From an uncultured Acidobacteriota bacterium (GTDB lineage: Bacteria; Acidobacteriota; Vicinamibacteria; Fen-336), in the NCBI GenBank assembly GCA_964442185.1, contig CAYTWT010000009.1, positions 186 to 64,185 on the forward strand: a stretch of DNA of 64,000 nucleotides, written 5' to 3'. The translations under genes and the position numbers were made by a program. This document shows, piece by piece, positions 2,617 through 61,749 of the stretch (position 1 is its first letter; the number at the start of each line of letters is the position of its first letter). The notes below the pieces were generated by a model. The model was not told the DNA's origin. It made no database searches and worked only from the letters and a program-made list of their open reading frames with translations.

Positions 2617-2617
2617 G

Positions 2618-3263: not shown

Positions 3264-3533
3264 ATGACGACGCATGTGTCGGCCACCGAGGCGGTCAGGA
3301 CTTTCTCAGACCTCCTGAACCGGATTCGCTATCGCGGTGAAGAGTTCGTCGTCGAACGGGCCGGCCAACCGGTGTGCCGCATGACGCCAGCCGCGCCGGC
3401 GAAGACTCTGAGCTTCCGGGATCTGGCCTCCCTGCTGCGGGAGCTCCCGAAGCCGGACGCCGGCTACGCCTCCGACGTGCGACGCGCTGCCCGGAGCCAG
3501 GGGCGGCCACCACGATCGCCGTGGGGACGCTGA
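3264..3533 (+). CDS. Phd/YefM-family antitoxin
   Basis: MTTHVSATEAVRTFSDLLNRIRYRGEEFVVERAGQPVCRM is Phd/YefM-like. Extended -10 TGtGATAAT at 3247-3255 directly abuts the ATG. Confidence 0.7.
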   Translation: MTTHVSATEAVRTFSDLLNRIRYRGEEFVVERAGQPVCRMTPAAPAKTLSFRDLASLLRELPKPDAGYASDVRRAARSQGRPPRSPWGR

Positions 3534-3922: not shown

Positions 3923-3996
3923 ACGAGCTCGGACCCCCGGCCAAGAGACCACGGCCACGCGCCTGTCCGTCTCGTCGGGAAGGCCCGCGGCCCGCG

Positions 3997-4488
3997 ATGG
4001 GTGGTATGTTGTGGAGTACGAGGGTCAAGACATCGGTCACGATCGACGAGACGGTGTTGAGCGCCGACGTCGATGTCACCCTCCGACTGACCCCCGACTC
4101 GCCGGAACGTTTCGTCGGCGAGATGCGGGTGGCCGGCTTCGAGCTTCGGGTGGACGATCCTGAATTCGTGCGCCGCACGCGTGTGCTGCCCTTCGTCCAT
4201 ATCGCCAGCGGCATGCCCCTCGACGTCGTGCTCGCCGGCTCAGGGCTCGAGGACGAGTTCCTGAGCCGGGCGCGGCTACTGGACATCGCGGGACTGCGCG
4301 TGCCGACGATCGATCCCGAAGACCTGGTCATCGCCAAGGTCCTGGCCGGCCGGCCAAGGGACCTCGGGGACGCACGCGGCCTGTGGCGGGCTCGAGGTCT
4401 GGAAATGGACGCAGCGAGGATCGCAGGGCGCCCAGCCACATGCCAGTCACGGCACGCTTGTTTCCGCGGCAACACCAAGGGAAACTGA
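3997..4488 (+). CDS. hypothetical protein, possibly a degenerate fusion: RHH-like N-terminus paralogous to the 1569 antitoxin plus a nucleotidyltransferase-associated C-terminal region
   Basis: Nucleotides 4011-4060 are ~88% identical to 1563-1612 ([14 protein letters not shown] vs [14 protein letters not shown]), but the paralogous ATG is ACG here. The C-terminus ([30 protein letters not shown]) resembles the conserved tail of small nucleotidyltransferase-family proteins. Confidence 0.35.
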
Positions 4489-4555
4489 ACCTTCCGGCGA
4501 CACGGCGCCCGCCCGCCGAACACGTAGCCGGAGAGATCAGGGCGCAAGGAGGACG

Positions 4556-10500: not shown

Positions 10501-12784
10501 GAACCGCCTCACGCCCTTCGCGAACGACCCCGTGACCGACCCCACGGGCGAGGCGCTGTTCGTCCGCGACGATGAGACCGGCGAGACATGGTCACCCACG
10601 CCGGGTCCGATGCCCCGCACTGGTACGGACGGTCGCTTCGTGATCCGGCACTCCGCCGGGCTCACTCATTTCGCTCGCGTAGCACACGGCCTGCGGCACG
10701 AGCTGGACGTATTCGTAGACGCGATGCAGCCGGTGAAGTTCTCCCTGCTCAGGCTCACGAACGAGAGCGCAAGGGCGCGTCGTCTGAGTGTCGTCGCCTA
10801 CAACGAGTGGGTGCTGGGGCCACCGCGGGCCGGCCAGAACAGGCACGTGGTGACCGAGCTCGACGGCGAAATCGGGGCAGTGCTGGCCCGCAACCCATAC
10901 AACACGGAGTTCGCGGGGCGCGTGGCCTTCGCCCACGCGAGCGAACCGCTCAGCTCGGCGACCGGAGATCGCCACTCGTTCGTCGGACGCAACGGCTCTT
11001 TGGCGCAGCCGCTCGCTCTGCGCCGTCGAGCGCTGTCGGGGCGCTTCGGCGCCGGGCTCGATCCCTGCGCTGCCTTGCACGTCCGCGTTCTGCTGGCCCC
11101 CGGGGAAAAGCGCGAGCTGGTGTTTCTGATTGGGCAAGGGCGGGATCTCGACCAGGCCCGCGAGCTCGTGGGCCGGCATGGTCAGGTGGATGCCGCAAGA
11201 CGCGCACTCGAAGAAGTGAGGCACAGCTGGGACCGCATCCTCGAGACTATCCAGGTCCGAACGCCAGACGACTCGCTCGACCTGCTGATGAACCGCTGGC
11301 TGCTCTACCAGGACGTGAGTTGCCGGCTGTGGGCCCGCTCCGGCTACTACCAGCCGGGCGGCGCGTTCGGGTTCCGCGACCAGCTTCAGGACGTGATGGC
11401 CCTTTCGCTGGCCCGGCCGGACCTCTTCAGAGAACACCTGTTGCGAGCCGCGAGCCGGCAGTTCCTCGAAGGCGACGTCCAGCACTGGTGGCACGAGCCG
11501 AGCGGCCGCGGCACCCGCACCCGCTGCTCCGACGACCTGCTGTGGCTTCCTTACGCGGTCGCGCACTACGTCCGGACCACCGGCGACGCAGGCGTACTCG
11601 ATGAGCCGGCGCCGTACCTCGAGGCCCCGCTGCTCGCCCCGGAAGCACACGACACCTACGTTCAGCCCCGCGTCTCGGCCGAAAGGGCCTCGCTCTTCGA
11701 GCACTGCCTGCGCGCCATCGACAAGGGACTGACCGCGGGCGCCCACGGCCTTCCCCTGATGGGGAGCGGGGACTGGAACGACGGCATGAACCGCGTGGGA
11801 CGGGAAGGGCGTGGGGAGAGCACGTGGCTGGGCTTCTTCCTCCACGGCGTGCTGCTCGAGTTCGCTTCGCTTTGCGAGGCCCGGGGAGACCAGGCCCGGG
11901 CCGAACGCTACGGCGGCGAGGCCAGGCGCCTCGCGAGCATGCTCGAGCAGACCTGGGACGGCGAGTGGTACCGGCGTGGCTACTACGACGACGGCTCAGC
12001 TCTGGGCTCGGCCCAGAACGACGAGTGCAGGATCGACGCGATCGCACAATCCTGGGCGGCGCTCTCGGGCGCGGTCCCGGTGCGGTTCGCAGAACGGGCC
12101 ATGGACGCGGTCCGCACGCACCTGGTGCGGCGTGGGTCGCAGGTCGTGCTGCTGCTCACCCCGCCCTTCGACCGATCGTCGCAGGATCCGGGGTACATCA
12201 AGGGCTATCCGCCCGGCGTGCGTGAGAACGGCGGCCAGTACACCCACGGGGCTTTCTGGGTCGTCATGGCCATGGCACGGCTAGGCAGTGGTGACGAGGC
12301 TGTGGAGCTGTTCCATCTGCTCAATCCCGTCAACCATACGAGAACCGCGGCGGACGTCGAGCGCTACAAGGCCGAGCCGTACGTCGTCGCCGGAGACGTC
12401 TACGTGCACCCGGCACACGCCGGGCGTGGGGGCTGGACCTGGTACACCGGCTCGGCGGGCTGGATGTACCGCGCGGGCCTGGAGAGCATCCTCGGGCTCC
12501 GGCGCCGGGGCTCGAGCTTCGAGATGGACCCCTGCATCCCGTCCTCCTGGCCCGACTACGAGATCGTCTGGCGCTTCGGCCGAACCCGCTACGAGATCGC
12601 GGTCTCGAACCCGAAGCGACGCTGCCGAGGCATCGCGGAGGCCAACCTGGACGGCGCGCCAGTCGACCCGGGCGCCATTCCTATCCTGGATGACGGCGGC
12701 ACGCACCAGGTACGGCTGGTACTCGGAGATCGGAAGCGGCGGGTCCCGCCCGTTGCCAAGCTGGGGACGATCGCTCCCGCTTGA
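4556..12784 (+). CDS. cgs: cyclic beta-1,2-glucan synthase (Cgs/ChvB/NdvB family), 2742 aa
   Basis: RBS AAGGAGGA then TTG start. Size and architecture fit the family: N-terminal membrane region, GT84-like domain with a DSD motif ([17 protein letters not shown]), multiple TM helices, and a C-terminal GH94 phosphorylase-like domain ([12 protein letters not shown]..., QYTHGAFW). Confidence 0.85.
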
Positions 12785-25379: not shown

Positions 25380-27569
25380 CTAGTGAACCCAGAGCACGTC
25401 GTAGCGCAGGATCGTGACATCCGCTCGGGCGGGCAGCAGTTCCTTCGCCTCGAAACGCACGGGATCGAAAGACGAGACGGCCTGGAGTTGCGCTTCGAGA
25501 TCCGCGATCTCGGTCTTCAGCCCGTCGACGCGCGCCTCCGCGTTGTTCTCCATGCGGTTCTTCGTGAGCACCGTGGAGGCTCCGGAGACGGTGCGCTTGC
25601 GCCCCGTGAAGAGGCCGATATTGGAGAGGATCGCGGAACCGATCGCGAGCCACTTCTCGCTCTTGCGGCCCGTCAGGTTCTGTTCTTCGGTCGCGAGGTC
25701 TCGGCGCTTCTTGTCGAGCCGTTCGCTGAGCCGCTGCGCGGTGACGCCGCCACCCTCGGCGGAAAGGCGCTCGGCGAAGGCGTCGGGGCGCTCGCCCGGC
25801 CTCGACGCCTGTTTCGAGATCGGATCGAAGAAGAGGGTCACGGCAAGCTTGCCGGGCAGGCGCTCCCTCAGCGTCTTTTCCACGCCTTTCGACCCAGCTG
25901 TCGCGAACCAGTCGGGCAGCTCGGCGTATTGAAGCCCGGCCGGGGCCTTCGTGGTGATCTTGGCCTCTTCGATCGTGAGCGGCTCGGCGTCCAGTACCTC
26001 GGCCGGAGAGCCTTCGGCCAGCGGCCAGGCGCGCGTCGCGACGACTTCGCCCGTGTCCTTGTAGCGAACCGCGTGCTTCACGAGCAGATGTGGCGTGGCG
26101 CGATCGCCGCCGTACTTCGCGAAATAGCTGTGGCGGAGGGGCGCTGGGAGAACCGGAGCGGTGCTCGCCGCCGCGGCGCTCGCCGGAACGGCCGCTTCCG
26201 GCGCGGCCTTGCCCTTCATCAGCCGGGCGATTTCCTCGCGTGTCAGGGGCCCCCGCAGATACGACATCGCCCAGCGCGATTCGAGCAGGCACGGCGCCGA
26301 CCGGTGCACGTCGTGGAGCAGGAACACGCGCTTCCTCGTCCCGTCCAGCAGCCTGTCGATGGCAGCAGGCTCGAGGCCCGAACCCTGCAGGCCTTCGCGC
26401 AGCCGCGTACGATCCTGGGCGGTCTGCAGCGTGCCCACGAGCCAGGTGCCCATGTTGGCGAGGCCCTTGTAGTCGAGATCCACCGGGTTCTGCGTGGCCA
26501 GCACGACGCCGACGCCCTGGGCTCTCCCCTGTTTCAGAAGCGTGAGCAGCGGTCGCTTGGTCGGCGGGTTGGCCGGGTGCGGCGGAAAATAGCCGAAGAT
26601 CTCGTCCATGTAGACGACCGCTCGCAGCTCGCTCGTGCCGCCCTGCCGGCGCATCCAGGTCTTCACCTTGTCCAGCACGAGCGCCGTGACGAAGAGCCGC
26701 TCGGCGTCGGAGAGATGGGCCGTATACAGGACCGAGAGACGCGGCTTGCCGTCCGGGGTTCGCAGCATCCGCTCGATGTCGAGCGGCTCGCCGCGGCGCC
26801 AGACCTCGAAGGACGGCGACGCGAGCAGGTTGTTGAGTGCCAGCATCAGGCCCTGGCGCTCCTTGTGCGGGTAGACGCTCTCGAGCGGCAGGGCGCCGAG
26901 TCGCTCGAAGGGCGGATCCGCGATCCCGCTGATCAGCGACTCGAGTGCTAGACCCTTGCCCGAGCGCCAGGTGGTTTCGATCAGGGTCGAGAGCAGGATG
27001 AACTCGCGCGAGTGCAGCGGATCGGCCTCGATGCCGATCAGCCCCAGCAATCCAGTCACGATCCCGACGATCTCGTCGCGCAGCTCCTCGGCCGCCTCCT
27101 CGAAGGAGGCGCCCGGGGCCTCGAGCGACTGGAGCACGTTGAGCGGGACGCCCGACGTCGAGCCGGGCGTGTAGATCACGGCATCGCGAGCGGCCTTGAG
27201 TGCTTCGATGTCGGCGCCGCCGAGACCCCAACCCTGAAGGCCCTTCTTCCAGTTCCCGGCAACGTCGGCGGCCGTCCTGCCTTCGCGTTTCTCAGCCTCG
27301 GCGTCGATCCAGGGCGCGAAGGACTCGGCGTCCAGCTTCTCGAAGAGCAGCAGCAGGTTGCCGAGGTCGCCCTTGGGATCGACGGCCAGCACGGGGATAC
27401 CCTTGCGCAGGAGCTCCTCGATGAGGTCCACCGCGAGGCCTGTCTTGCCGGAGCCCGTCATGCCCACGATGAAAGCGTGAGTCAGCAGGTCCCGCGACTC
27501 GAGCTCCAGGCGCTCCCCGGGCTTGCCGGAAGGATCCACACCGCGTCCCAGATAGAGGCCGCTTGCCAT
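25380..27569 (-). CDS. DUF853/HerA-like P-loop NTPase (YjgR family) with extended C-terminal region
   Basis: HAFIVGMTGSGKTGLAVDLIEELL and LAVDPKGD match the DUF853/HerA Walker A core. 729 aa. Starts 8 nt after the gltA stop. Confidence 0.55.
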   Translation of the reverse strand: MASGLYLGRGVDPSGKPGERLELESRDLLTHAFIVGMTGSGKTGLAVDLIEELLRKGIPVLAVDPKGDLGNLLLLFEKLDAESFAPWIDAEAEKREGRTAADVAGNWKKGLQGWGLGGADIEALKAARDAVIYTPGSTSGVPLNVLQSLEAPGASFEEAAEELRDEIVGIVTGLLGLIGIEADPLHSREFILLSTLIETTWRSGKGLALESLISGIADPPFERLGALPLESVYPHKERQGLMLALNNLLASPSFEVWRRGEPLDIERMLRTPDGKPRLSVLYTAHLSDAERLFVTALVLDKVKTWMRRQGGTSELRAVVYMDEIFGYFPPHPANPPTKRPLLTLLKQGRAQGVGVVLATQNPVDLDYKGLANMGTWLVGTLQTAQDRTRLREGLQGSGLEPAAIDRLLDGTRKRVFLLHDVHRSAPCLLESRWAMSYLRGPLTREEIARLMKGKAAPEAAVPASAAAASTAPVLPAPLRHSYFAKYGGDRATPHLLVKHAVRYKDTGEVVATRAWPLAEGSPAEVLDAEPLTIEEAKITTKAPAGLQYAELPDWFATAGSKGVEKTLRERLPGKLAVTLFFDPISKQASRPGERPDAFAERLSAEGGGVTAQRLSERLDKKRRDLATEEQNLTGRKSEKWLAIGSAILSNIGLFTGRKRTVSGASTVLTKNRMENNAEARVDGLKTEIADLEAQLQAVSSFDPVRFEAKELLPARADVTILRYDVLWVH

Positions 27570-27576
27570 TGCCGGG

Positions 27577-28872
<1,296 letters not shown>

Positions 28873-29167: not shown

Positions 29168-29926
29168 TCACGATCGGCTCGGGATCGGCATGGAAGGCGT
29201 GGCGACGGGGGCTGGACGCAGGCCGCGGTAGAGGCCGATCATCTCCGCGGGCCGGCCTGCCCCGACGACCTTGCCCTGGTCCATGACGATGAGGCGATCA
29301 CAGAGCGCTTCGAGCAGCACGGGCTCGTGGCTGACGAACAGGGCCGTGTCGCCGCGCTCACGCCTTCGCCGCAGCTCCGCAAGGCAGCGCTCACGAAAGG
29401 TTTCGTCGCCGACTGCCAGCGCCTCGTCGATCAGCAGGATGGGCGCCTCAGCGCGCAGGGCCACGGTGAACGCGAGGCGCATCTTCATGCCCGTGGAGAG
29501 GTTCTCGAGCCGAACGTCCGTGAAGCGCTCGAGGCCGGCAGCCGCGACGATCTCGTCAGCCTCCGTCACGAGCCTCCGGCGCGGGATGCCGAGCACGACC
29601 CCGTACAACAGCACGTTGTCCAGAACGCTCAGTGCCCCGTGAAAGCCAACCCCCAGCTCCAGGATCGGCGCCACCCGTCCACTGACGACCACCGACCCGG
29701 CGCTGGGCGGGTAGATGCCCGCCACGATCCGAATCAGCGTGGACTTGCCCGAGCCGTTCTTGCCGAGCACCCCGACGAACTCGCCGTCCGCGACGCGCAG
29801 CGAGACGTCGCTGAGGGCGTGGAGTGTCTCGTAAGTGAAACGGCCCTGCACCAGCCAGCGGCCGAAGCTGCGTCGCCTCTGGTGCGGGACACGGAAGATC
29901 TTCGAGAGCCCCGTGACCTCGATCAC
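29168..29926 (-). CDS. polysaccharide/glycolipid export ABC transporter ATP-binding protein (Wzt/TagH/KpsT-like)
   Basis: GKNGSGKSTL, LSTGMKMRLAFTVAL, LLIDEALAVGD. Confidence 0.75.
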   Translation of the reverse strand: MIEVTGLSKIFRVPHQRRRSFGRWLVQGRFTYETLHALSDVSLRVADGEFVGVLGKNGSGKSTLIRIVAGIYPPSAGSVVVSGRVAPILELGVGFHGALSVLDNVLLYGVVLGIPRRRLVTEADEIVAAAGLERFTDVRLENLSTGMKMRLAFTVALRAEAPILLIDEALAVGDETFRERCLAELRRRRERGDTALFVSHEPVLLEALCDRLIVMDQGKVVGAGRPAEMIGLYRGLRPAPVATPSMPIPSRS

Positions 29927-30687
29927 AGCGATTCCGGGATCATGCGCTGACGTCGCACAAAGGCGTAGAGGCCCAGGGCGAACACAGCCACGCAGAACGC
30001 GGCCGTGAGCACGATGAAGCGCGTGGCCGGGAAGAAGCTGGAGGTCAGGAACCAGCGGATCAGGTAGAGACAGCGCGCGATCGGGTTCAAGTACAGCACT
30101 TCAGCCAGGGCCTCTGACTGAACCGGATAGACGACCGGCGTCAACCAGAACAACGCCTGCAGGGCGGTGTGCCAGAGCAGGCCGGTGTCGCGGAAGTCGA
30201 CGTAGGCGAGCGCCACGAAGAAACCGATCCCGGCCGCCAGCAGGCCGAGGCAGACGATCGGCAGAATCGCGAACGGCGCCAGCGGCGACAGCACACCCCT
30301 GACGGCGAGTACGAACACGAGCAGCACACTGTTGATGGCGAGCGTGATGAAGGTCGAGAGCATGCCCGAGGCCACCACTACGACGACCGGCAGCGGCACC
30401 GCCCTCAGGATCCCCATCTTGCGCGTGAGCGCATCGAGACCCGAGAAGGTGCAGTCCTGGAAGAACGTCCAGAAAACCACCCCCACGAGAACGTAGATCT
30501 CGAAGCCCCGACCCCCGATACCCAGGATCTTGCGGAAGACAGCCAGATAGATGCCCAGCATCACCAGCGGGCTCAAGAGGCCCCAGGCATAGCCGAGCAC
30601 CGAATCGTTGTACTTGAGGCGGAAATCGCTCACCGCCACCTCGCGCACGATGTCGAGAAGGCGGGCGCGATCACGCCAAAGATGCAT
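29923..30687 (-). CDS. ABC-2 type permease (Wzm/TagG-like)
   Basis: MHLWRDRARLLDIVREVAVSDFRLKYNDSVLGYAWGLLSPL is the ABC-2 N-terminal signature, with 6 TM helices. ATG at 30687 is in frame with track ORF 29923..31044. ATGA overlap with the ATPase gene. Confidence 0.7.
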   Translation of the reverse strand: MHLWRDRARLLDIVREVAVSDFRLKYNDSVLGYAWGLLSPLVMLGIYLAVFRKILGIGGRGFEIYVLVGVVFWTFFQDCTFSGLDALTRKMGILRAVPLPVVVVVASGMLSTFITLAINSVLLVFVLAVRGVLSPLAPFAILPIVCLGLLAAGIGFFVALAYVDFRDTGLLWHTALQALFWLTPVVYPVQSEALAEVLYLNPIARCLYLIRWFLTSSFFPATRFIVLTAAFCVAVFALGLYAFVRRQRMIPESL

Positions 30688-31843
30688 ACAGGGACTCCAT
30701 GGTGCGTGCGTAGTGGGCGCGCGCGTATCGTACCGCGACGCGGGTCCGGCCGGCCGCGGCCAACTGCTCGCGCAGCCCCCGTTCGCCAAGCAGCCGCAAG
30801 ACGGCCTGCGCCAGCGACACGGGGTCGCCGGTGCGGAAGTGCAGGCCACTGCGCTCGTCTTCCACGATCTCGGCAGGCCCCCCGGAATCAGACACGACGA
30901 CCGCGACGCCCGCGGCCATGGCCTCGACGACCACGAGCCCGAACGGCTCCCGGACCGAGGGGCAGACCACCACGCTGCAAGCGGCCATGACCGCGGCGAC
31001 GTCCGGAACGAAGCCGGTGATGCGCACGGCAGCGTCGAGACCAAGCTCCTGGCGCATCCTCATGACCCTGCCCCTGACCCGCCTCACGTGCGGCAGCAGG
31101 TCGGCGTTGAGCGCCCCCCCCACGATCGCGAAGGCGACTTCTGGGCGCTTCGCCCGGATCGCGCGCGCTGCCAGCAGGAACGTCTCGTGCCCCTTCATCG
31201 CGTCGAAGCGGGCGAACATCGCAACGAGCGGCGCGGCATCTGGGATGCCCAGCCGCATGCGCACCGCGCGCGGGCTCTCGCTGGGAGCGGCGGGATCGAT
31301 TCCGACGGGGACGACGTCCGTGCGGGCGGCGAGCTCCGGCGCAAACCCCGTGATCTCGGCGCGCTGCGCCTCCGAGAAGGCGAGGATCCGGGCCACCCAC
31401 CGGCCCGCCGCCATCCGCCAGAGAAGGCGCCTGGGCGCGGCGCCGAGGTAGTTCACCTGGTAGACGAGCCTGGCTCCCTGCCGAGCAGCCGGAACGGCGA
31501 GCAACAGCCCGAGGACGTCGGACACGTGGAGGAGACGGACCCCTCTCTCCTGCACCAGCGTGCGCAGCCGCAGAGCGGCCCGCGCGTGCCGAAACAGCAC
31601 CCAGGGAATCGCAAGATGCCAGAGCGAGCGAGCCGAAAACGGGATCACGAGGGCCTCGACACCCGCCTCCCGAAGCCTGGTCGCGAGCGCTCCGTCGCTC
31701 GCGAGGACCACCAGCGGTCGAAACCGCAAGGGGTCGAGATCGGAAAGCAGATGCAGGAGCGCGTTCTCGGCTCCACCCAGTTCCGCGTAGAGGTTCAGGT
31801 AGAGGACCGGCGTCCTTTCGAGGAAGCTCGCGCGCTGGTTCAT
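30671..31843 (-). CDS. GT4-family (GT-B) glycosyltransferase
   Basis: EPFGLVVVEAMAAGVAVVVSDSGG is the GT4 E-x7-E region. Overlaps the Wzm start by 17 nt. Confidence 0.75.
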   Translation of the reverse strand: MNQRASFLERTPVLYLNLYAELGGAENALLHLLSDLDPLRFRPLVVLASDGALATRLREAGVEALVIPFSARSLWHLAIPWVLFRHARAALRLRTLVQERGVRLLHVSDVLGLLLAVPAARQGARLVYQVNYLGAAPRRLLWRMAAGRWVARILAFSEAQRAEITGFAPELAARTDVVPVGIDPAAPSESPRAVRMRLGIPDAAPLVAMFARFDAMKGHETFLLAARAIRAKRPEVAFAIVGGALNADLLPHVRRVRGRVMRMRQELGLDAAVRITGFVPDVAAVMAACSVVVCPSVREPFGLVVVEAMAAGVAVVVSDSGGPAEIVEDERSGLHFRTGDPVSLAQAVLRLLGERGLREQLAAAGRTRVAVRYARAHYARTMESLYASLA

Positions 31844-31871
31844 CGAGGTAGGGAGTCCCTGTCTCGCCAGT

Positions 31872-32570
31872 CTATGGAGCCCCGGACCAGGGTAGCCATG
31901 GGCGGCGGACGACGTGCTCGCAGTCGCGAGTCACCGCGACCGCTGCCACGTAGCCTGGGGCCACGGCCAGATCCGCCAGGGCAAGGCCCCCGATCCGTCG
32001 AAAGCCGGGCGGCCGCTCTTCGACGCCGACGTCGATCCTGTCGAGCCCGTGCCCGATCCCCTCGCCCAGCGCCTTCAGGCAGGCTTCCTTGCGAACCCAG
32101 CAGCGGAAGAAGGCCACGGGGCGAGCTGCTTGAGGAAAGGCGCGAAGCGCTTCTGCCTCCGGCCTCGCGAAGAAGCGGCCGGCGATCGCCGTGTTGTCGC
32201 GGGTTGCCGAAAGCCGCTCGATGTCCACTCCCGGCTCGTCGCGGCAGGTGAATGCGAGCAGGGCCCGGTCACCCGAGTGAGAGACGTTGAAGCGAAGCTC
32301 GGCGCCGCCCGTCTCGGCCAGGGCGAGCTTCCCGTGCGGCCCGCGCGCAAACGAGATGGACTGAGCCGGAGCGTCGAGATAGCGAGCGAGAAGTGCGCGC
32401 AACGCGCCACGCGCGACCACGAAGCGTCGGCGCGGTTCGTCGGCCCGAAAGCTCGCGGCGCGCTCCAGCTCGTCCGCCGAAAGAGGGGCCATGGCATATC
32501 CGATCGCATCGCCCAGGACCACATCCCAGACGTGTACCTCACCTGCATTGGGAAGGGCGAGGTCGCTCAC
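31872..32570 (-). CDS. Sfp-type 4'-phosphopantetheinyl transferase
   Basis: FNVSHSGDRAL and WVRKEACLKALG PPTase motifs; EVHVW N-terminus. GTG at 32570 is in frame with track ORF 31872..33104 and overlaps the upstream stop (GTGA). Confidence 0.7.
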   Translation of the reverse strand: MSDLALPNAGEVHVWDVVLGDAIGYAMAPLSADELERAASFRADEPRRRFVVARGALRALLARYLDAPAQSISFARGPHGKLALAETGGAELRFNVSHSGDRALLAFTCRDEPGVDIERLSATRDNTAIAGRFFARPEAEALRAFPQAARPVAFFRCWVRKEACLKALGEGIGHGLDRIDVGVEERPPGFRRIGGLALADLAVAPGYVAAVAVTRDCEHVVRRPWLPWSGAP

Positions 32571-35092
32571 GCCGGATCCACGCCGGCCAGGAGAGCTCGG
32601 ATCCGGGCGGCCACGGCGTCGACCGCCGGCTCCTGAAACAGCTCCGCGTGGCCCGCGCTGATGCGTTCGACGCGGACGTCCCCTCCCGTAAGCCGGCGCA
32701 GGGCGTGCTCGGCCTCCTGGGCCGGCTCCGGCGGGCCTTGCTCGGCAAAGAACAGCGCCAGAGGCGCCTCGACCGGACGGGGCCGGTAGCGGCGCAGCGC
32801 GCGCCGATTCGCCTGCACCAGGGGCGCTTCCGCTGGCGAAATGGGCGGCCCCGGCCCGTGGCCGCGCAGCCGATTCGCGAGCGCGCTGAGGGCGACTCCG
32901 AGACGATCTTGCAGCCGGCAGCGGGCGCCCAGCGGTAGCGGCGGTGGATCGAGCAGGATCAGCAGGCTGACCGCCTGCTGCTGCTGTTCGAGCTGGTAGG
33001 CCATCTCGAGGGCCACGGCCACCCCCATGCAGAATCCCCCCAGCAAGTAAGGTCCCAGGGGCTGGCTTCGCTGCACCGCACGGACGTAGTGAGCGGCGAG
33101 ACACGGCACTTCACCGAGGGGCGGCTCGCGACCGTCGAAGCCAGGGGCCTGCAGGCCGAAGAATGGCCGGCCTTCGAGTCGGCCCGCGAGCTTGGAAAGA
33201 AACATCACGCCGCCGCCGATCCCGTGGACGAAGAAGAAGGGCAGGCCGGAGCCCCGCGCGCGCAGGGGCACGAGGGGGCCCCACGCGGCAACCTCAGTGC
33301 TGCGGACATGTTCGGCGAGCGCCCCAGCGCTGGGTGCGTCGAAGAGCACGCTGACCGGGAGGCTCACGCCGAGTCGTTCGTGGAGCCTCGCCATCAGCTC
33401 TGCCGCCCCGACCGAGTCTCCTCCAAGGTCGAAGAAGTCGTCGGCGACCGAGATGCCGGGCACGTCGAGGACCCGCGCGAGTTCCTCGGCGATCGAGCGT
33501 TCCAACAGCGACGCGATCGGAGCCGCCGCGGACCGGGGACCCGGCTGCACAGCAGGTCGGCCGTGGCCGCCCGGGCCCAGCATCGCCGCGAGTCCGTTGC
33601 GCGGCACCTTGCCCGCGGCGTTGCGCGGAATGGCGTCCCGGAAGACGATCCTCGACGGCACCTTGAACGGCGCGAGGCGTGCTGCCACAAAGGCCCGCAG
33701 GCTGGCTGGCGCGACGGCCGCGTCCGGCTGCAGCACCACGACGGCTGCGAGATCCTCGCCCAGGCGAGGATGGGCGACTCCGAAGGCAGCGGCTTCGGCC
33801 ACGGCGGGATGCGCGAGGAGCGCTTCATCCACCTCGCGCGGCGAGATCTTCTCGCCGCCGCGATTGATCTGTTCCTTGAGCCGGCCAGTGATCCTCAGGT
33901 CGCCGTCTGCATCCAGCCACCCAAGGTCCCCCGTCCGCAGCCAGTGGCCGAAAAAGGCTGCGCTCGTGGCTTCTGGGTCCCCGTCGTAGCCCGCCATCAC
34001 GCCCGGTCCCTCGACCAGGATCTCGCCGACCGAGCCCGTCGGCAGCGGCCGGCCGGAGGCGTCGACGATCGCTAGCGACGGTCCGACGGATCGGCCTACG
34101 CTACCGGGCTTGCGGCGCGCCTGCTTTTCAGTCACGGCGCTGACGAGCCCGGCCTCCGTGAGGGCGTAAGCCTCCAGGACGGGCACGCCGAAGAGAGCCT
34201 CGACGCGTTCCCTTGACGAGCTCGGCAGAGCGGCGGCTGCGGAGCGCACGAAACGCAGCGGCGCCCGATGACGCAGCTCCTCGGGGCCGCCGGCACGATC
34301 CAGGATCGCCTGGTAGACGGCCGGTGAGGCGCCGAAATGCGTGGGCATCGCCTCCTGAAACCAGCCGCGGAAACGCTCGGCGTCGAAACCCGGCGACACG
34401 AAGACGCTGCTTCCCGAAACCAGTGGGAACGCGAGAGTGTGGTAGAGAGCGGCCAGATGGAAGAGCGGCGAGACCGTGAAACCCCTGTCGCCAGCCGTCA
34501 GCCCCCACACCCGGCAGGCGTCCCTGCCGGCTCCGCAGAACTGAGCATGCGTGATCCGCACGCGCCGCGGCTCACCGGCCGTGCCCGACGTGCGCAACAC
34601 GAAGGCGGCGTCGGCCGGCGACGCCGCCGACACCGCGGCGAGCCTACCTCGATCACCTCGCCCATTCAGGTCGAAGAGACCCGCAGGCCCGCTCGGGCGC
34701 GATTCGAACTCGAGCACTTCAATCCCCAGCTCGCGCGCCGCCGCAGCCGCCGGCACGGCGCGGCGCTGGGGCACGGCGATGGCACGGGCGCCCAGGCCGC
34801 TCAGGACCCGGCGGGCTTCGTGGAGCGGCAGCCCGATGGGAAGGGGGGCCGCGATGGCCACAGCGGTGACCGACAGAAGAGCTGTGACGGTCGCTGCCTC
34901 GTCCGGAAGCGCCAGCGCAATCCGGTCTTCTCGACCAAAGCCCCGCCCAGCGAGCAGGCCGGACACCCTCTCGACGTGACCTGCCAGCTCGCCGTAGGTG
35001 AGAGGCGGTTGGCTCGGGGCCCTCAGGGCCTCGGCACGCGGCCGCTCGCGCGCGTGCTGCTCCAGAAGCCGAACCAGGGTGTTCCCGTACAT
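32567..35092 (-). CDS. standalone NRPS-like enzyme: adenylation - thiolation (PCP) - thioesterase (A-T-TE), 841 aa
   Basis: A-domain cores (LTYGELAGH; TSGTAGEPRRV; YRTGDL-like WLRTGDLGWLDADGDL; RLKEQINRGGEKI; AGKVPRNGL). PCP core FFDLGGDSV. C-terminal alpha/beta-hydrolase TE (FFFVHGIGGGV...GGFCMGVAVA). Confidence 0.8.
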   Translation of the reverse strand: MYGNTLVRLLEQHARERPRAEALRAPSQPPLTYGELAGHVERVSGLLAGRGFGREDRIALALPDEAATVTALLSVTAVAIAAPLPIGLPLHEARRVLSGLGARAIAVPQRRAVPAAAAARELGIEVLEFESRPSGPAGLFDLNGRGDRGRLAAVSAASPADAAFVLRTSGTAGEPRRVRITHAQFCGAGRDACRVWGLTAGDRGFTVSPLFHLAALYHTLAFPLVSGSSVFVSPGFDAERFRGWFQEAMPTHFGASPAVYQAILDRAGGPEELRHRAPLRFVRSAAAALPSSSRERVEALFGVPVLEAYALTEAGLVSAVTEKQARRKPGSVGRSVGPSLAIVDASGRPLPTGSVGEILVEGPGVMAGYDGDPEATSAAFFGHWLRTGDLGWLDADGDLRITGRLKEQINRGGEKISPREVDEALLAHPAVAEAAAFGVAHPRLGEDLAAVVVLQPDAAVAPASLRAFVAARLAPFKVPSRIVFRDAIPRNAAGKVPRNGLAAMLGPGGHGRPAVQPGPRSAAAPIASLLERSIAEELARVLDVPGISVADDFFDLGGDSVGAAELMARLHERLGVSLPVSVLFDAPSAGALAEHVRSTEVAAWGPLVPLRARGSGLPFFFVHGIGGGVMFLSKLAGRLEGRPFFGLQAPGFDGREPPLGEVPCLAAHYVRAVQRSQPLGPYLLGGFCMGVAVALEMAYQLEQQQQAVSLLILLDPPPLPLGARCRLQDRLGVALSALANRLRGHGPGPPISPAEAPLVQANRRALRRYRPRPVEAPLALFFAEQGPPEPAQEAEHALRRLTGGDVRVERISAGHAELFQEPAVDAVAARIRALLAGVDPA

Positions 35093-35172
35093 CCGCGTTC
35101 AGTCTACGCGGGCGGCGAGCGGCGGCGCAACGACCATGTGGCTGGCAACGACCGCTACTAGAATGACAGCGC

Positions 35173-36771
35173 GTGAGCCCGCTCCTTCGGCCCGAGCAAC
35201 GCCAGCACTTCGTCGCGCGCAGCTACCGCGCGCTTTCGGGGGCGGTCGGGGAAGGGCACGCCCGGCGCATTGCCCGCCTGCACCCGGCCCTCGACAAGGA
35301 AGCGGCCTATCAAGGCTGGCTCCGGGCGCGGCAGCAGCTCGCGAGCGGCTTCCCAGCCATGGCCTCGCTTCGGAGCAGACCCCTGATCAGCGTGCTGATG
35401 CCCGTCTTCGACGCGCCGGAGAGATTTCTGCGTGAGGCGATCGGGTCGCTGATCGAGCAGTCGTATCCGGAATGGGAGCTGTGTGCGGCCGACGGCGGCC
35501 CGGACGGATCCGCTGGGAGCCGTGTCCTGCAGGAGTGGGCCCGCACCGATCGTCGCCTCCGTGTCGTTTCGGTCGGCCGGAACCGTGGCATCGCCGGCAA
35601 CTCGAACGAAGCCCTCCGAATGGCACGCGGCGAGTTCGTCGCTCTGCTGGATCAGGACGACCTGCTCGAGCCCGAAGCGCTCCTCGCCATGGTGGCCCGG
35701 CTCGATCGGGAGCCGGGTCTCGACCTCGTCTACTCCGACACGGACAACGTGACCTGCTGGGGCGACCTCTATGCTCCCTTCTTCAAACCAGACTGGTCCC
35801 CGGAACTGTTCCTCTCCGCGAACTACCTCGCGCACCTGACGCTGGTGCGGCGCTCCACGGTCGAGGCTGCCTCCGGCTTCGACGAGAGCCTGGACGGCGC
35901 CCAGGACTGGGATCTGCTACTGCGCGTCACCGAGAAGACCTCTCGGATCGCCCACGTGCCTCGGGTCCTCTACCATTGGCGGTCGCTCCCGACCTCGTGC
36001 GCCTCGAGCCTGGACGCCAAGCCCTATGCGCGTGAGGCCCAGCGGCGGGCGGTGCAGGCGCATCTTGAGAGGCGCGGCCTCGCGGCGAAAGTCGAAGTCG
36101 CCGCGACCGGCAGGGTGCGGATCGAGTTGCGGCCGAAGCAACTTCCGAGCGTCACGCTGGTTCTCGCCAAGGGCGTTGCGCGCGCCCACAGCATGGGCTT
36201 CGCGGCCAGCGGCCTTCTCGGCCTCGACGTCGCCGCGGACGCGCGAGACGCGCGCGGTGAAGTGCTGATGATCTGGGATCCTGGGTTCGATCCCGGCGAC
36301 GGGGGCTGGGCCTGTGACCTCGCTGCCTGGGCGCTCGATCCCGAGATCGGCGCCGCAGGAGGGCTGGCCGTCAACAAGGATGGCCGAGTGGATTCCGTCG
36401 GCTTCGTGGCGAACGAAGGTATCGCCACGCCCGTTTTTGCCGGTGCTCAGGCCGATGCGTGGACACCGCTTGGCAAGGCGGAGTGGTACCGCAACCTGCT
36501 GGCGCCGTCGCCGCGCGCGTTTGCCACGCGGCGCGAGGTCTGCGAGCGGCTGGGCGGCCTCGAGGCGTCGCCGCAGGGGATCTTGGACTATGGAATGAGA
36601 TTGCGACGCGCCGGGTTGCGCAGCATGGTCGTGCCTACAGCTCGGCTGGTTCGACGCTGGCCGACGAGTGCGTTGTCCGCAGTACCGGCGGACTCCTGTG
36701 TCGGAAACGACCCCTGCTTCAACCCGAACCTGGCGCCGGAGTCGACAGTGCCCCGCCCTCGCGAAGGCTAG
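35173..36771 (+). CDS. GT2-family glycosyltransferase (two-domain)
   Basis: ISVLMPVFDAPERFLREAIGSLIEQSYPEWEL, DQDDLLEPEAL (DxD). TAGAAT -10-like element a few nt before the GTG start. Divergent from the A-T-TE gene. Confidence 0.7.
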   Translation: MSPLLRPEQRQHFVARSYRALSGAVGEGHARRIARLHPALDKEAAYQGWLRARQQLASGFPAMASLRSRPLISVLMPVFDAPERFLREAIGSLIEQSYPEWELCAADGGPDGSAGSRVLQEWARTDRRLRVVSVGRNRGIAGNSNEALRMARGEFVALLDQDDLLEPEALLAMVARLDREPGLDLVYSDTDNVTCWGDLYAPFFKPDWSPELFLSANYLAHLTLVRRSTVEAASGFDESLDGAQDWDLLLRVTEKTSRIAHVPRVLYHWRSLPTSCASSLDAKPYAREAQRRAVQAHLERRGLAAKVEVAATGRVRIELRPKQLPSVTLVLAKGVARAHSMGFAASGLLGLDVAADARDARGEVLMIWDPGFDPGDGGWACDLAAWALDPEIGAAGGLAVNKDGRVDSVGFVANEGIATPVFAGAQADAWTPLGKAEWYRNLLAPSPRAFATRREVCERLGGLEASPQGILDYGMRLRRAGLRSMVVPTARLVRRWPTSALSAVPADSCVGNDPCFNPNLAPESTVPRPREG

Positions 36772-41529: not shown

Positions 41530-41781
41530 CGCTCACCTCCGCCCCTAATCCCAGGCGAAGATTCTAATGCAAAGACCGACTCTTCGTAGAAAAGTCAGCG
41601 TCGGGAGGCGAGGTAGGCTTTGAGATCCGGGAGGCAAACGGTGCAGGTTTGAGCGCAGCCGGTGTGCTTGCCGAGATCCTCGAGACTGAGGCGCCATAGA
41701 CCAAAATCTTAACTGAAACTGAATGTCAGGTTCACGTTGTCTGCAAAGCGAGCGGCCTGCGGGTGCTAGAATCGCAGCATC

Positions 41782-42072
41782 GTGCCCGAGGCCCTCGACG
41801 TCACCTGCCCGTGCTGCTCGGCCCTGCTCAAGCTGGATCCCGAGACCGGGGCGATCATCTGGGTCGAGCAAAAGAAGGCCCCGGCCAAAGACTTCGACGA
41901 TCTGGTGAACCGGGTGCATTCGCAGAAGAGCCAGCTCGATGAGAAGTTCGCGCGCTCGGTCGAACAGACGAAGCATGCGAAGCAAATCCTCGAGAAGAAG
42001 TTCGAGGAGGCTCGGCGGCGTGCCGAGGCCGATCCGACCGGGCGGCCACCCAGTCCCTTCGACAACGAATAG
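41782..42072 (+). CDS. hypothetical small Cys-containing protein (possible zinc-ribbon-like N-terminus, Lys/Glu-rich tail)
   Basis: VTCPCCSALLKLDPETGAI; ORF-track prediction with GTG start; no family recognised. Confidence 0.4.
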   Translation: MPEALDVTCPCCSALLKLDPETGAIIWVEQKKAPAKDFDDLVNRVHSQKSQLDEKFARSVEQTKHAKQILEKKFEEARRRAEADPTGRPPSPFDNE

Positions 42073-42079
42073 GCGGAGA

Positions 42080-42601
42080 GTGCCGGCTGGCAGGGCCGTT
42101 TCGCTCTGGCTCGCTGGCTTGTGGCTGGGTCTGCTTCTGGCTTCCTGGGTTTCGGCCACAGCGAGCTTCCGGGGCGTCGATCGCGTTCTGGGGCCCGGAC
42201 TGCGGCCCGAGTTGGACGCGAGGCTGACAGCGGTCGCTCCTGGCGATCGCCGCCTGGTCCTGCGCCACCTGGCCGCTGAGATCAACCGCTGGATGTTCCA
42301 GCGCTGGGCCTTGGCTCAGCTGGCACTGAGCCTCGCCCTGCTCGTCGCCGCGTGGCGTGGCGGAGCGCCGCTGCGAGCAATCGGGGTGCTGGCGCTCGCG
42401 ATCGTCGTCGTGCAGTCGTTTGCGCTCGCACCGTCTATCGAGGCCCTGGGCCGCTCGATCGATTTCCTGCCCCGCCCGCTGCCTCCCGAAATCGGCCGCC
42501 ACTTTGGCCTGTTGCATGCGGGGTTCGTCGGCCTCGACCTCGCCAAGGCAGTGGTGCTCCTGGCCGCGGGATACCTGCTCGCGCGCCGTCCGTTCCCTTG
42601 A
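42080..42601 (+). CDS. hypothetical integral membrane protein (about 4 TM helices)
   Basis: Track ORF 41939..42601 trimmed to the GTG at 42080 after the upstream stop. Hydrophobic helices LWLAGLWLGLLLASW, LALSLALLVAAW, IGVLALAIVVV, VVLLAAGYLLA. Confidence 0.4.
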   Translation: MPAGRAVSLWLAGLWLGLLLASWVSATASFRGVDRVLGPGLRPELDARLTAVAPGDRRLVLRHLAAEINRWMFQRWALAQLALSLALLVAAWRGGAPLRAIGVLALAIVVVQSFALAPSIEALGRSIDFLPRPLPPEIGRHFGLLHAGFVGLDLAKAVVLLAAGYLLARRPFP

Positions 42602-42605
42602 CCTC

Positions 42606-43598
42606 GTGACGCCCGTCTCGGTGATCGTTCCCGTCAAGGACGGGGCCGCGTTCCTGGAGCGGACCCTGCCGCCGCTCGTCGCCAGCTTGCCACTGGGCGT
42701 GGAGCTGATCGTGAGCGACGATGGGTCGAGCGACGCCTCGGCAGCGGTGGCCCGGACGAACGGCGCGCGCTTGGTGAACCACGCGGCGACCACGGGTCCC
42801 GCCGGCGCGCGCAACCGTGGCGCGAGCTCCGCCCACGGCGCGATTCTCGTTTTCCTCGACGCGGACGTCCGCGTTCACGCCGATACCCTCACGCGACTCC
42901 TCGGCGCCTTCGAGGATTCGGCTGTCGCGGCTGCGTTTGGCTCCTACGACGAAGCGCCACAGGCCCGTTCCTGGATCAGTCTCTACAAGAACCTGGCCCA
43001 CCACTTCGTCCACCAGCGCTCGAGCGGAGAGGCCGCGACGTTCTGGGCGGGCTGCGGGGCGATCCGGGCCTCGGTTTTCCACGAACTGGGCGGCTTCGAT
43101 GAGACGTATCGACGGCCGTCGCTCGAGGACGTGGAACTGGGCTACCGGCTTCGCGCAGGCGGCCACCCTATCCGGCTACTACCCGAGGCGCAGGTCACGC
43201 ATCTCAAGGAATGGTCGCTGGCGAGCTGGCTGCGCGCCGATTTCGCCGACCGTGCGGTGCCGTGGGCCCGCCTGCTGCGCGAGGGGCGCGGCCTCCCCCG
43301 CGATCTCAACTTCACCTGGATGGATCGAGCGGCATCGCTGCTGGTCGGCCTCGGTTGTGTCGGCCTCGTTGGCGGGGCCCTCGTGCCCCTGGCGGCGCTG
43401 TTCGGCGGTGCCGCGCTCGCACTCGCGATCACGCTCGATGCGCCCTTCCTCGGCTTCTGCGCGCGTCGGGTCGGCGTTGCCTTTGCCATCGCGGCCGCGG
43501 GCCTGCATCTCCTGCACCGCATCGCGGGCCTCACGGGTCTCCTGCTCGGCTTCGCAACGGCCGGGCGGCGGCTTGCCTCGACCCCGTCCTCAACCTAA
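42606..43598 (+). CDS. GT2-family glycosyltransferase with C-terminal transmembrane helices (GtrB/ArnC-like polyprenyl-phosphate glycosyltransferase architecture)
   Basis: VSVIVPVKDGAAFLERTLP, SDDGSSD, FLDADV DxD motif. C-terminal helices LLVGLGCVGLVGGALVPLAALF. GTG at 42606 is in frame with track ORF 42357..43598. Confidence 0.65.
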   Translation: MTPVSVIVPVKDGAAFLERTLPPLVASLPLGVELIVSDDGSSDASAAVARTNGARLVNHAATTGPAGARNRGASSAHGAILVFLDADVRVHADTLTRLLGAFEDSAVAAAFGSYDEAPQARSWISLYKNLAHHFVHQRSSGEAATFWAGCGAIRASVFHELGGFDETYRRPSLEDVELGYRLRAGGHPIRLLPEAQVTHLKEWSLASWLRADFADRAVPWARLLREGRGLPRDLNFTWMDRAASLLVGLGCVGLVGGALVPLAALFGGAALALAITLDAPFLGFCARRVGVAFAIAAAGLHLLHRIAGLTGLLLGFATAGRRLASTPSST

Positions 43599-61261: not shown

Positions 61262-61749
61262 ACGTGCCTGTCGGGGAAGGGGACTTTCGGCAGGCGCTGG
61301 GCCAGTTCGCGACCGGGGTCACGATTGTCACCACGCGCGACGCCTTGGGCCAGCCGATGGGGCTCACCGTCAACGCGTTCTCGTCGGTCAGCCTGGATCC
61401 GCCCCTGGTGCTGGTCTGCATCGACAACCGCTCGGACACCCACGACGGCTTCGAGGCCTCGGGCGTCTTCGGCATCAGCGTGCTGTCGGAGGCGCAGGAG
61501 GGCTGGTCGCGGCGCTTCGGAGCGCCGGGCAGGGAGAAGTTCCAGCCGGCCGATCTGATCGTCGGCGAGACCGGTGTGGCGCTCGTGCCCGAGGCGCTGG
61601 CCCACATCGAGTGTCGCATCAGCGCGCGGCTCCCCGGCGGCGACCACACGATCTACGTCGGCGAGGTGCTGCGGCTGCACGTGAGGCCCGGACGACCGCT
61701 TCTGTATCACGCGAGCGGCTACGCCAGACTGGGCGCTTCGGGGTCGTGA
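61258..61749 (+). CDS. NAD(P)H-dependent flavin reductase (HpaC/flavin reductase-like domain)
   Basis: FRQALGQFATGVTIVTTRDALGQPMGLTVNAFSSVSLDPPLVLVCI is the flavin reductase signature. GTGA overlap. Confidence 0.75.
   Translation: MNVPVGEGDFRQALGQFATGVTIVTTRDALGQPMGLTVNAFSSVSLDPPLVLVCIDNRSDTHDGFEASGVFGISVLSEAQEGWSRRFGAPGREKFQPADLIVGETGVALVPEALAHIECRISARLPGGDHTIYVGEVLRLHVRPGRPLLYHASGYARLGASGS

Follow-up and report, generated by a model that had tools for sequence, protein, structure and literature searches.

The 64,000-nucleotide stretch of DNA from an uncultured Acidobacteriota bacterium that was analysed here (referred to as the window) contains, at positions 29168-36771, a cluster of six genes in which a protein with adenylation (A), carrier (thiolation, T) and thioesterase (TE) domains, designated A-T-TE, is encoded together with a 4'-phosphopantetheinyl transferase (PPTase), two glycosyltransferases of families GT4 and GT2, and the permease Wzm and the ATPase Wzt of an ABC-2 exporter. 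We assign a probability of about 0.5 to the reading that this cluster makes an O-antigen-like, ABC-transporter-dependent glycan with a variant-specific acyl decoration, which is loaded on a carrier domain and moved by a cysteine-type TE (Cys-TE) before export. The GT4–Wzm–Wzt core would assemble the glycan on the cytoplasmic side, attached to a lipid carrier, and export it. The PPTase would turn the carrier domain into the holo form at Ser560, and the A domain would adenylate a carboxylic acid that is neither an amino acid nor oxalate and load it onto the carrier domain as a thioester. The acyl group would then move from the carrier to Cys688 of the TE domain, which, acting as an acyltransferase and not as a hydrolase, would pass it on to a hydroxyl or an amino group of the growing glycan, and Wzm/Wzt would export the acylated glycan. 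We infer from sequence comparison that the glycan is the acceptor of the TE, that the glycan is a lipid-linked polymer and which kind of acid is attached. The features of the cluster are as follows.

29168-29926, minus strand: Wzt, ATPase of the ABC-2 exporter (252 aa, Pfam ABC_tran)
29923-30687, minus strand: Wzm, ABC-2 permease (254 aa, Pfam ABC2_membrane)
30671-31843, minus strand: GT4 glycosyltransferase of GT-B fold (Pfam Glycos_transf_1 and Glyco_transf_4)
31872-32570, minus strand: Sfp-type PPTase (232 aa, Pfam AASDHPPT_N and ACPS)
32567-35092, minus strand: A-T-TE (841 aa, Pfam AMP-binding, AMP-binding_C, PP-binding and Thioesterase)
33578-35092, minus strand: A domain of A-T-TE (residues 1-505, acyl-CoA-synthetase type)
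33293-33502, minus strand: carrier (T, or peptidyl carrier protein, PCP) domain of A-T-TE (residues 531-600)
32570-33250, minus strand: TE domain of A-T-TE (residues 615-841)
35093-35172, no strand: divergent intergenic region between A-T-TE and GT2 (80 bp, presumed bidirectional promoter region)
35173-36771, plus strand: GT2 glycosyltransferase (532 aa, Pfam Glycos_transf_2)

Searches of Pfam and NCBIfam and a re-reading of the open reading frames (ORFs) reproduced the six genes with the order, coordinates and domains that an initial annotation of the window had given them. The Pfam scan found no condensation (C) domain in A-T-TE. The operon is tightly coupled. The stop codon of A-T-TE and the GTG start codon of the PPTase share a GTGA at 32570-32567, the ATG of Wzm lies inside GT4 in a 17-nt overlap (30687-30671), and the stop of Wzm and the start of Wzt form a second GTGA junction at 29926-29923. 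The sequence was read at each of these junctions and at the 80-bp divergent gap, and the coupling, overlap and gap described earlier are all present; the second GTGA junction is an addition to that description.

To collect sister loci, metagenomes were scanned with Wzm, and the contigs were then analysed by tblastn and Pfam. About 20 contigs have the conserved frame XDH–[variable block]–GT4–Wzm–Wzt–[GT2b]–citrate synthase, in which XDH stands for an enzyme of the xanthine dehydrogenase family. Type A loci (the window, L001, L002, L003 and L106) have GT2 divergent from A-T-TE, with or without the PPTase, and no GT2b. In type B (L091:1339-7150), GT2 is divergent from PPTase–GT4–Wzm–Wzt–GT2b without A-T-TE; tblastn detected no A-T-TE remnant in L091, and no carrier-protein gene was found in this locus. 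Type C (L096) places a multi-module nonribosomal peptide synthetase (NRPS) before PPTase–GT4. Type D (L098, L102, L104 and L105) has a divergent block of a 511-aa GT2, a 476-aa methyltransferase, a 703-aa tandem GT2, more GT4s and a YfhO-like protein, and a 1052-aa glycosyltransferase is also found in these four polysaccharide blocks; L108 has a related divergent glycosyltransferase block, with no methyltransferase match. XDH runs straight into GT4 in type E (L121), only Wzm–Wzt is present in type F (L112), which is the sole variant without GT4, and type G (L090) has no cluster whatever. In types A to E, GT4 lies immediately upstream of Wzm.

Thus the conserved core of the locus is GT4–Wzm–Wzt beside citrate synthase, and upstream of that core the genes are exchanged from one relative to another. 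The type A arrangement is more than a chance juxtaposition, as it recurs in L001, L002, L003 and L106, whose A-T-TE proteins are 88%, 76%, 55% and 45% identical to that of the window, respectively (the L106 contig stops short of citrate synthase). The divergent layout across an intergenic region is repeated in these four loci and in L091. Three further contigs carry an A-T-TE of the same clade with citrate synthase as a neighbour, and GT2 is present in two of the three. An exact look-up of the A-T-TE sequence gave no record, but a cluster representative identical to it (P0001) exists. The genes of the locus also diverge at different rates: among L001-L003, identity to the window is 90-94% for citrate synthase and 80-88% for Wzt, and falls as low as 66% for GT4, 55% for A-T-TE and 54% for GT2. 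Wzm is the best conserved protein of the cluster, being 81-94% identical in close relatives and 81-91% identical among L001-L003. From these comparisons, A-T-TE is an accessory cassette in a hypervariable locus and no part of a fixed six-gene system, and the locus behaves like a serotype locus, in which a constant exporter and one glycosyltransferase are combined with replaceable, faster-evolving specificity genes. Because sister cores carry O-polysaccharide blocks and the relatives of the exporter are polymer channels, the exported product would most simply be a glycan.

The NRPS of L096 occupies positions 1-8150 on the plus strand and is followed by the PPTase (8150-8752), GT4, Wzm, Wzt, GT2b and citrate synthase. 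Its domain order is A, T, heterocyclization (Cy) type, Cys-type A, T, nitroreductase-like oxidase, C, T and Cys-TE. The first A domain is 41% identical to that of the window, and the terminal T-TE part is 39% identical and has the same GFCMG and LIDPPP motifs. The Cy-type domain has the motif FPLTxxQxAYWVGR, the Cys-type A domain carries LSGDWIP, and the C domain has HLxxxDG instead of HHxxxDG, with the second His replaced. The reading frame seems to change near 5745, possibly through an assembly error. One TE lineage is combined with differing donors, namely a simple acid, the A-T-TE of L106, in which the pocket residues differ from those of the window, and the NRPS of L096. This combination suggests a constant acceptor; what stays the same within the locus is GT4 and the exporter, together with GT2 where the sequence extends to it. 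A wider proposal, which we put forward tentatively, is that NRPS machinery serves as interchangeable serotype cassettes, in which the Cys-TE would directly attach an acyl chain from the carrier to a lipid-linked glycan ahead of export and a swap of the donor would change the decoration; the chain made by L096 would then contain an acyl-thiazole.

The A domain (Pfam AMP-binding, 189.5 bits, and AMP-binding_C) matches the oxalate-CoA ligase AtAAE3 (5ie0) best in the PDB, with 275 bits. Residues 3-501 align with AtAAE3 end to end with gaps of only 1-2 residues. Among NCBIfam models, the FadD7 family scores highest (350 bits), the cut-off of 650 not being reached. The core motifs TSGT (168-171) and GRxKExINRGGEKI are present, and the catalytic Lys495, which corresponds to Lys500 of AtAAE3, is invariant. 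The pocket was read on the AtAAE3 map, since this acyl-CoA-ligase-type domain aligned ambiguously to GrsA positions 278-301. The pocket of AtAAE3 consists of Val215-His216, Cys288-Ser289, Ala313-Met314, His319 and Lys500, of which Ser289 and His319 are the oxalate-binding residues, their conservation being confined to oxalyl-CoA synthetases (PMC8905533). In the A domain of the window, V215/H216 are replaced by L213/A214, C288/S289 by A285/A286 and A313/M314 by A310/L311, and the position of H319 is a one-residue deletion after Gly315. Because the oxalate-binding residues are lost (Ser289 to Ala286, His319 deleted, His216 to Ala214) and nothing in the pocket would hold a second carboxylate, oxalate is unlikely and was rejected as the acid of A-T-TE. 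The A domain descends from oxalyl-CoA-synthetase-like enzymes but no longer has the residues with which these bind oxalate.

Two other classes of substrate or enzyme were also rejected. The motif F211-H212-L213-A214 is the FH of acyl-CoA ligases and aligns with F213-H214 of AtAAE3, so that His212 stands where the amino-binding Asp (Stachelhaus position 235, FDxS) would be. An alpha-amino acid is unlikely for this reason, and the amino acid option among the acids considered in the initial annotation falls away. A fatty acyl-AMP ligase (FAAL) would be recognisable by about 20 extra residues inserted into its N-terminal domain, which are absent in the alignment with AtAAE3, and no FAAL model was among the 25 best of 110 NCBIfam matches of the A domain. 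No long-chain features of FAALs or fatty acyl-CoA synthetases turned up in the A domain, although no test aimed at long-chain acids was made. The pocket, whose lining of Leu, Ala and Gly is small and hydrophobic, suggests that the acid is uncharged, and the descent of the domain from a small-pocket enzyme suggests that it is short. The pocket residues FHLA/AAA/AL/..GL are near-identical, except for the variable residue 314, in nine members of the clade down to 53% overall identity, and near-invariance at such a distance argues for a selected specificity. The initial annotation had named a generic fatty-acyl-AMP ligase, with homologues in lipid A or ornithine-lipid pathways and no link to the glycosyltransferases, as the outcome that would speak against its proposal; what was found is an A domain of the acyl-CoA-ligase class that is fused to T and TE domains, has a clade-specific pocket and is linked to glycosyltransferase and ABC-transporter genes in eight loci.

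The carrier domain (Pfam PP-binding, 66 bits) has the predicted phosphopantetheine-attachment residue Ser560 in GGDS (codon 33413-33415). D551-S560 (DDFFxxGGDS) is invariant in the clade alignment, and Ser560 is kept in 122 of 122 family sequences. The TE domain (Pfam Thioesterase, 98 bits) has the triad Cys688 (codon 33029-33031), Asp715 and His815, all invariant in nine clade members. Its GFCMG aligns with the nucleophile motifs GWSLG and GYSYG of an NRPS TE (7crn) and a fatty acid synthase TE (3tjm), and the predicted nucleophile is Cys688 instead of Ser. A Cys nucleophile is present in 64 of the 96 family members that have a TE. Cys-type TEs are rare but known, as described for ObiF1 and SulM (PMC6668435, PMC11298585). 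Kinship of the window TE with these beta-lactone- and beta-lactam-forming Cys-TEs was considered and rejected, as ObiF1 and SulM were not among its sequence matches and the best matches were ordinary Ser-TEs. Acyl transfer would be favoured over hydrolysis, because a hydrolysing TE would make the enzyme a futile ATPase cycle.

The PPTase (Pfam AASDHPPT_N and ACPS, 35 and 56 bits) contains GVDIE and the WxxKEAxxK-type sequence CWVRKEACLKA. It had been described as a dedicated PPTase coupled to its carrier-protein substrate. The GTGA junction bears out the coupling, but the pairing is not obligatory: no PPTase accompanies A-T-TE in L003, where A-T-TE overlaps GT4 by 4 nt, and L091 shows the reverse.

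Most members of the wider A-T-TE family have a different pocket from the window clade. In a family alignment of 122 sequences, His is found at AtAAE3 position 216 in 90, Ser at 289 in 90, Met at 314 in 102 and the equivalent of His319 in 76. The full oxalate signature occurs together with a Cys-type TE in P0011, P0013-P0015, P0017, P0019-P0023 and others, and in the loci L006 and L088. This suggests that most of the wider family activates oxalate and makes carrier-bound oxalyl thioesters. Because oxalate cannot plausibly cyclise or self-condense, intermolecular transfer is likely to be the ancestral chemistry of the TE. A full-text literature search returned no description of oxalate-activating carrier-dependent enzymes. 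The window clade appears to be a derived offshoot of this family, whose substrate has changed and which has become linked to a glycan locus. The A-T-TE relatives at 43% identity in L087:3588-6245 and L089:10425-12562 each lie beside a radical-SAM gene pair; they have a third pocket type, HHIG/GAA/GM, with a Cys-TE, and may represent a separate conserved association.

The exporter is related to those of polymer-exporting systems. Wzt (Pfam ABC_tran, 72.9 bits) has the Walker A motif GKNGSGKST, the signature LSTGM and a Walker B motif in its translation. Its NCBIfam matches are galactan Wzt/RfbE (161 bits), TagH (140 and 122), DrrA (103) and NodI (97). Among solved structures its nearest relative is Aquifex Wzt (6amx/6m96, 161 bits), and TarH and Mycobacterium tuberculosis RfbE come next. 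Wzm scores 33.1 bits against Pfam ABC2_membrane (cut-off 26.9), 55.8 bits against the NCBIfam galactan Wzm model and 24 bits against KpsM, and its PDB matches are Aquifex Wzm (6m96_B), TagG and M. tuberculosis Wzm. The pair belongs to the superfamily without being a named equivalog. The assignment to an ABC-2 exporter of O-antigen or teichoic-acid type agrees with these nearest relatives, which are Aquifex Wzm/Wzt, TarGH/TagGH and the mycobacterial galactan exporter.

GT4 (Pfam Glycos_transf_1, 122 bits) carries the EX7E-type motif EPFGLVVVE, and its best PDB match is Alr3699 (4xso, 70 bits); no close characterised relative was found in NCBIfam or the PDB. GT2 had been called a two-domain enzyme, which is correct by descent and fold. 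Only its first GT-A domain (residues ~70-290, 35380-36042) is intact, with DQDD at 160-163 invariant; the Pfam Glycos_transf_2 match (79 bits) covers residues 73-181, and residues 72-274 alone give an above-threshold GT2 match. The second GT-A domain (residues ~325-500, 36145-36672) is vestigial: the C-terminal half has a GT2_3 match only (E=0.04), and although it is homologous to the second GT-A domain of tandem GT2 proteins of about 620-640 aa, about 90 residues of its N-terminal half are lost in the window clade, which has IWDPGF at the DXD position against FLNNDI. This truncated domain without DXD is probably inactive. Homologues of GT2 at 33-40% identity are tandem-GT2 proteins named 'O-antigen biosynthesis protein' by JGI, some of them fused to methyltransferases. 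In the PDB, GT2 is closest in sequence to K4 chondroitin polymerase, which it matches in the second GT-A domain of that protein (2z86, residues 369-572, 85 bits). The AlphaFold2 model (predicted local distance difference test score, pLDDT, 92.6) has its top fold matches in the same K4 polymerase (K4CP) and heparosan synthase 2, both tandem GT-A polymerases.

Several observations weigh against acylation of a lipid-linked glycan by this cluster. Wzm, Wzt, GT4 and the PPTase all score under the NCBIfam equivalog cut-offs (161 vs 400 for Wzt, 56 vs 380 for Wzm, and 136.8 vs 370 for the PPTase, whose closest model is HetI). The scanned ORFs of the window included no initiating phosphoglycosyltransferase, no WaaL or other ligase and no sugar-nucleotide genes, and, given this negative, the lipid-linked polymer is assumed. 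The two intact glycosyltransferase domains of the cluster are compatible with a short oligosaccharide too. The known examples all belong to a single narrow lineage, so that synteny may partly reflect shared ancestry, and the case is built on the sequence of an uncultured metagenome-assembled genome. We know of no TE that acylates a polyprenol-linked glycan. Furthermore, GT2–GT4–Wzm–Wzt occurs without A-T-TE in L091, and no glycosyltransferase or ABC-transporter genes adjoin A-T-TE in those relatives of about 35-44% identity for which the neighbourhood was examined, which together imply that the enzyme is self-sufficient and could act elsewhere. The relative in L004 (Cylindrospermum) stands alone, that in L006 (Anaerolineae) is accompanied by a PPTase only, and that in L088 adjoins MMPL, PMT_2 and XDH genes. 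When contigs were scanned with the clade alignment, in which generic PCP and A4 peptide patterns were used, the matches listed were all relatives of 37% identity or less, and tblastn of the cluster proteins on 80 such loci gave no linkage to GT4, Wzm or GT2 among the matches listed.

The best of the rival explanations, which we nevertheless regard as unlikely, is that the product is a small secreted or outer-membrane glycoconjugate, either an acyl-sugar or a glycolipid, made by A-T-TE or the L096 NRPS together with GT4 and GT2 and expelled by the ABC-2 pump. An acyl or acyl-peptidyl unit would be glycosylated by GT4 and GT2, or esterified to a mono- or disaccharide, much as natural-product clusters combine such steps with exporters of DrrAB/NodIJ type. 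The two intact glycosyltransferase domains and the lack of an initiating transferase in the cluster would suit such a product. L096 has a typical secondary-metabolite NRPS, with Cy, Cys-type A and oxidase domains, in the same place, and natural-product clusters characteristically include an Sfp-type PPTase, as this operon does. There is also a precedent for a TE that makes an acyl-sugar, because the TE of Pks13 transfers mycolate to trehalose. However, Wzm/Wzt are nearer to polymer exporters than to pumps for small molecules, with NodI at 97 and DrrA at 103 bits compared with 161 bits for galactan Wzt. Moreover, the orthologous cores of sister genomes carry classical polysaccharide blocks, and GT2 belongs to the tandem-GT2 'O-antigen biosynthesis' family and has a fold like that of polysaccharide polymerases.

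It is less likely still that A-T-TE, with or without the PPTase, is an unrelated passenger that acts on another cellular acceptor and merely sits in a recombination-prone slot upstream of GT4–Wzm–Wzt. Such independence would explain why A-T-TE relatives at about 35-44% identity (L004, L006, L087, L088 and L089) lack glycosyltransferase and ABC-transporter neighbours, why the core is found without A-T-TE in L091, L098, L102 and L121, and why A-T-TE and the PPTase each occur without the other. It fits poorly with the position of A-T-TE, which is the first gene of the operon and is translationally coupled downstream, in L003 directly to GT4 through the 4-nt overlap. A-T-TE is also kept with GT2 and the core across 45-100% identity, the clade-specific change of the pocket coincides with the link to glycan genes, and the TE lineage is retained in L096 despite the replacement of the donor module.

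Acylation might also occur once per chain, either at the reducing end, as an anchor or primer that replaces the polyprenol-linked start, or at the non-reducing end, as a cap that ends polymerisation. Here, too, the missing initiating transferase would be accounted for; sister loci have the 476-aa methyltransferase where the window has A-T-TE, so that a cap could take over its possible role, and the A domain falls among the families of fatty-acid-CoA ligases in NCBIfam. Both kinds of terminus are known in ABC-transporter-dependent systems, in which caps stop chains, and the Vi antigen is anchored by an acylated N-acetylhexosamine. This explanation is improbable, as the 252-aa Wzt lacks the C-terminal domain that would bind a cap, the A domain is of small-pocket oxalate-type descent and, aligned with AtAAE3, shows no FAAL-type insertion, so that a long-chain anchor is disfavoured, and loci without A-T-TE keep the same GT4 and exporter, which argues against priming.

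Decoration of an exported glycan by a carrier-bound acyl group, the reading preferred here, has partial counterparts in several known systems. As in O-antigen and wall-teichoic-acid pathways (Wzm/Wzt, TarGH and the mycobacterial galactan system), an ABC-2 permease and a Wzt-type ATPase are encoded alongside GT4 and GT2, and as in serotype loci, a hypervariable locus surrounds a conserved exporter. Unlike those ABC pathways, the window Wzt has no C-terminal carbohydrate-binding domain, A-T-TE and the PPTase lie inside the operon, and genes for an initiating transferase, a ligase or sugar nucleotides were not found nearby. The nearest functional precedent is the tetronate module (wbeK-O) of Vibrio cholerae O1, which also lies in a Wzm/Wzt-dependent O-antigen locus; wbeK encodes an acyl carrier protein and wbeL a ligase-like protein. 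In V. cholerae O1, perosamine is N-acylated with tetronate, and wbeL has an ATP-binding domain (PMC3441752). In both cases an ATP-dependent acid-activating enzyme would be encoded inside an O-antigen locus, and in V. cholerae the acyl substituent is on every sugar. In contrast to V. cholerae O1, where the ligase, carrier, reductases and acyltransferase are separate and the acid is built on the carrier, the window fuses the A, T and Cys-TE domains and adds a PPTase, without tailoring enzymes.

DltABCD, which forms D-alanyl teichoic acids, and AlmEFG, which forms glycyl lipid A, proceed from adenylation through a carrier protein to an esterified envelope glycopolymer or glycolipid. The window cluster would share this logic of adenylate, carrier and envelope acylation. 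Unlike these systems, which use amino acids and the MBOAT protein DltB with DltD, or the LpxM-like AlmG, its A domain lacks the amino-binding Asp. A Dlt/Alm-type system was rejected, as no MBOAT or LpxM-like Pfam family was found in the cluster or in the flanking ORFs scanned. With the oxalate-CoA ligases (AtAAE3, LsOCS and yeast Pcs60) and bacterial FadD7, the A domain shares a full-length match, the core motifs and the catalytic Lys; it differs from the oxalate-CoA ligases in that the predicted acceptor is a fused carrier domain and not CoA, and in that Ser289, His319 and His216 are lost and Met314 is replaced by Leu311. The GxCxG nucleophile motif is shared with ObiF1, a beta-lactone TE, and SulM, a monobactam TE, and the single module without a C domain is shared with NRPS-like A-T-TE enzymes. 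Unlike the ObiF1/SulM group, the window protein has an A domain of the acyl-CoA-synthetase type, not of the amino-acid or aryl-keto-acid type, and its context is glycan export. A full-text literature search found no A-T-TE, NRPS or PPTase genes described within Wzm/Wzt loci, and the sole match for Wzm/Wzt with a PPTase concerned a siderophore plasmid (PMC10059132).

The cluster is flanked downstream by citrate synthase (27577-28872) and then a HerA-like ATPase, and upstream by a three-subunit XDH-family enzyme. GT2 on the plus strand and the XDH FAD subunit on the minus strand are convergent, and their stop codons overlap by 4 nt (36768-36771), which leaves no space for a terminator between them; the same is seen in L001, L002 and L091. 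Citrate synthase directly adjoins the HerA-like ATPase in the window (27569-27577), whereas an extra FAD_binding_4, cytokinin-dehydrogenase-like gene lies between the two in L001:20562-22187, L002:17222-18943 and L003:16481-18214. The promoter scan gave no sigma-70-like consensus in the 80-bp divergent region, this consensus being uninformative for Acidobacteriota, and the promoter and terminator scan of the locus gave nothing convincing, its terminator-like sites falling within genes. Rfam gave zero matches over the whole window. The GC content of the region shows no anomaly, and hence nothing in it points to a recent foreign origin. The citrate synthase shares 82% identity with proteins that bear the name Vicinamibacteria bacterium, and one GT2 homologue of the same name is 48% identical. 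The host is most probably a soil acidobacterium of the class Vicinamibacteria. It would be a diderm, which fits the TonB-dependent receptor adjoining the sister locus L003.

Elsewhere in the window, a 2742-aa ORF with coding-like codon bias (4556-12784, plus strand) has GH94 supersandwich, GH94 catalytic and glucoamylase-like domains and resembles a cyclic beta-1,2-glucan synthase in its sequence. The sole tRNA call of the window (ARAGORN, tRNA-His, 91 nt, 11295-11385) sits inside this ORF and is probably a false positive. A conserved set of three genes at 41779-43595 (plus strand) encodes two small proteins (~100 and 173 aa), which have no Pfam match in the precomputed annotation of relatives, and a 330-aa GT2; it adjoins genes for a bacterioferritin-associated ferredoxin and a ferritin, also in L002 and L003, and might be a polyprenol-phosphate sugar synthase set. 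A stand-alone AMP-binding acyl-CoA synthetase of 562 aa (61611-63299, plus strand), near genes for an acyl-CoA dehydrogenase and a short-chain dehydrogenase, resembles a gene of ordinary fatty-acid metabolism and has only a distant similarity to A-T-TE.

By sequence, the locus appears to belong to a known kind, that of ABC-transporter-dependent glycan loci with carrier-dependent acyl decoration, and the new element appears to be an A-T-TE inside such a locus. If acylation of the exported glycan is correct, the fused adenylation–carrier–Cys-thioesterase would be a glycan acyltransferase and so a new enzymatic route to the decoration of surface glycans, and thiotemplate modules and polysaccharide genes would recombine within one hypervariable locus. 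In genome mining, such loci would be annotated as 'NRPS-like' secondary-metabolite clusters, and the enzyme would be relevant to engineered acylated polysaccharides. For the family, which is large and uncharacterised, the oxalate-binding residues kept by most members suggest carrier-bound oxalyl transfer. For the organisms, the finding would bear on surface variation in abundant, poorly cultured soil Acidobacteriota, for example in relation to phage, predation and desiccation.

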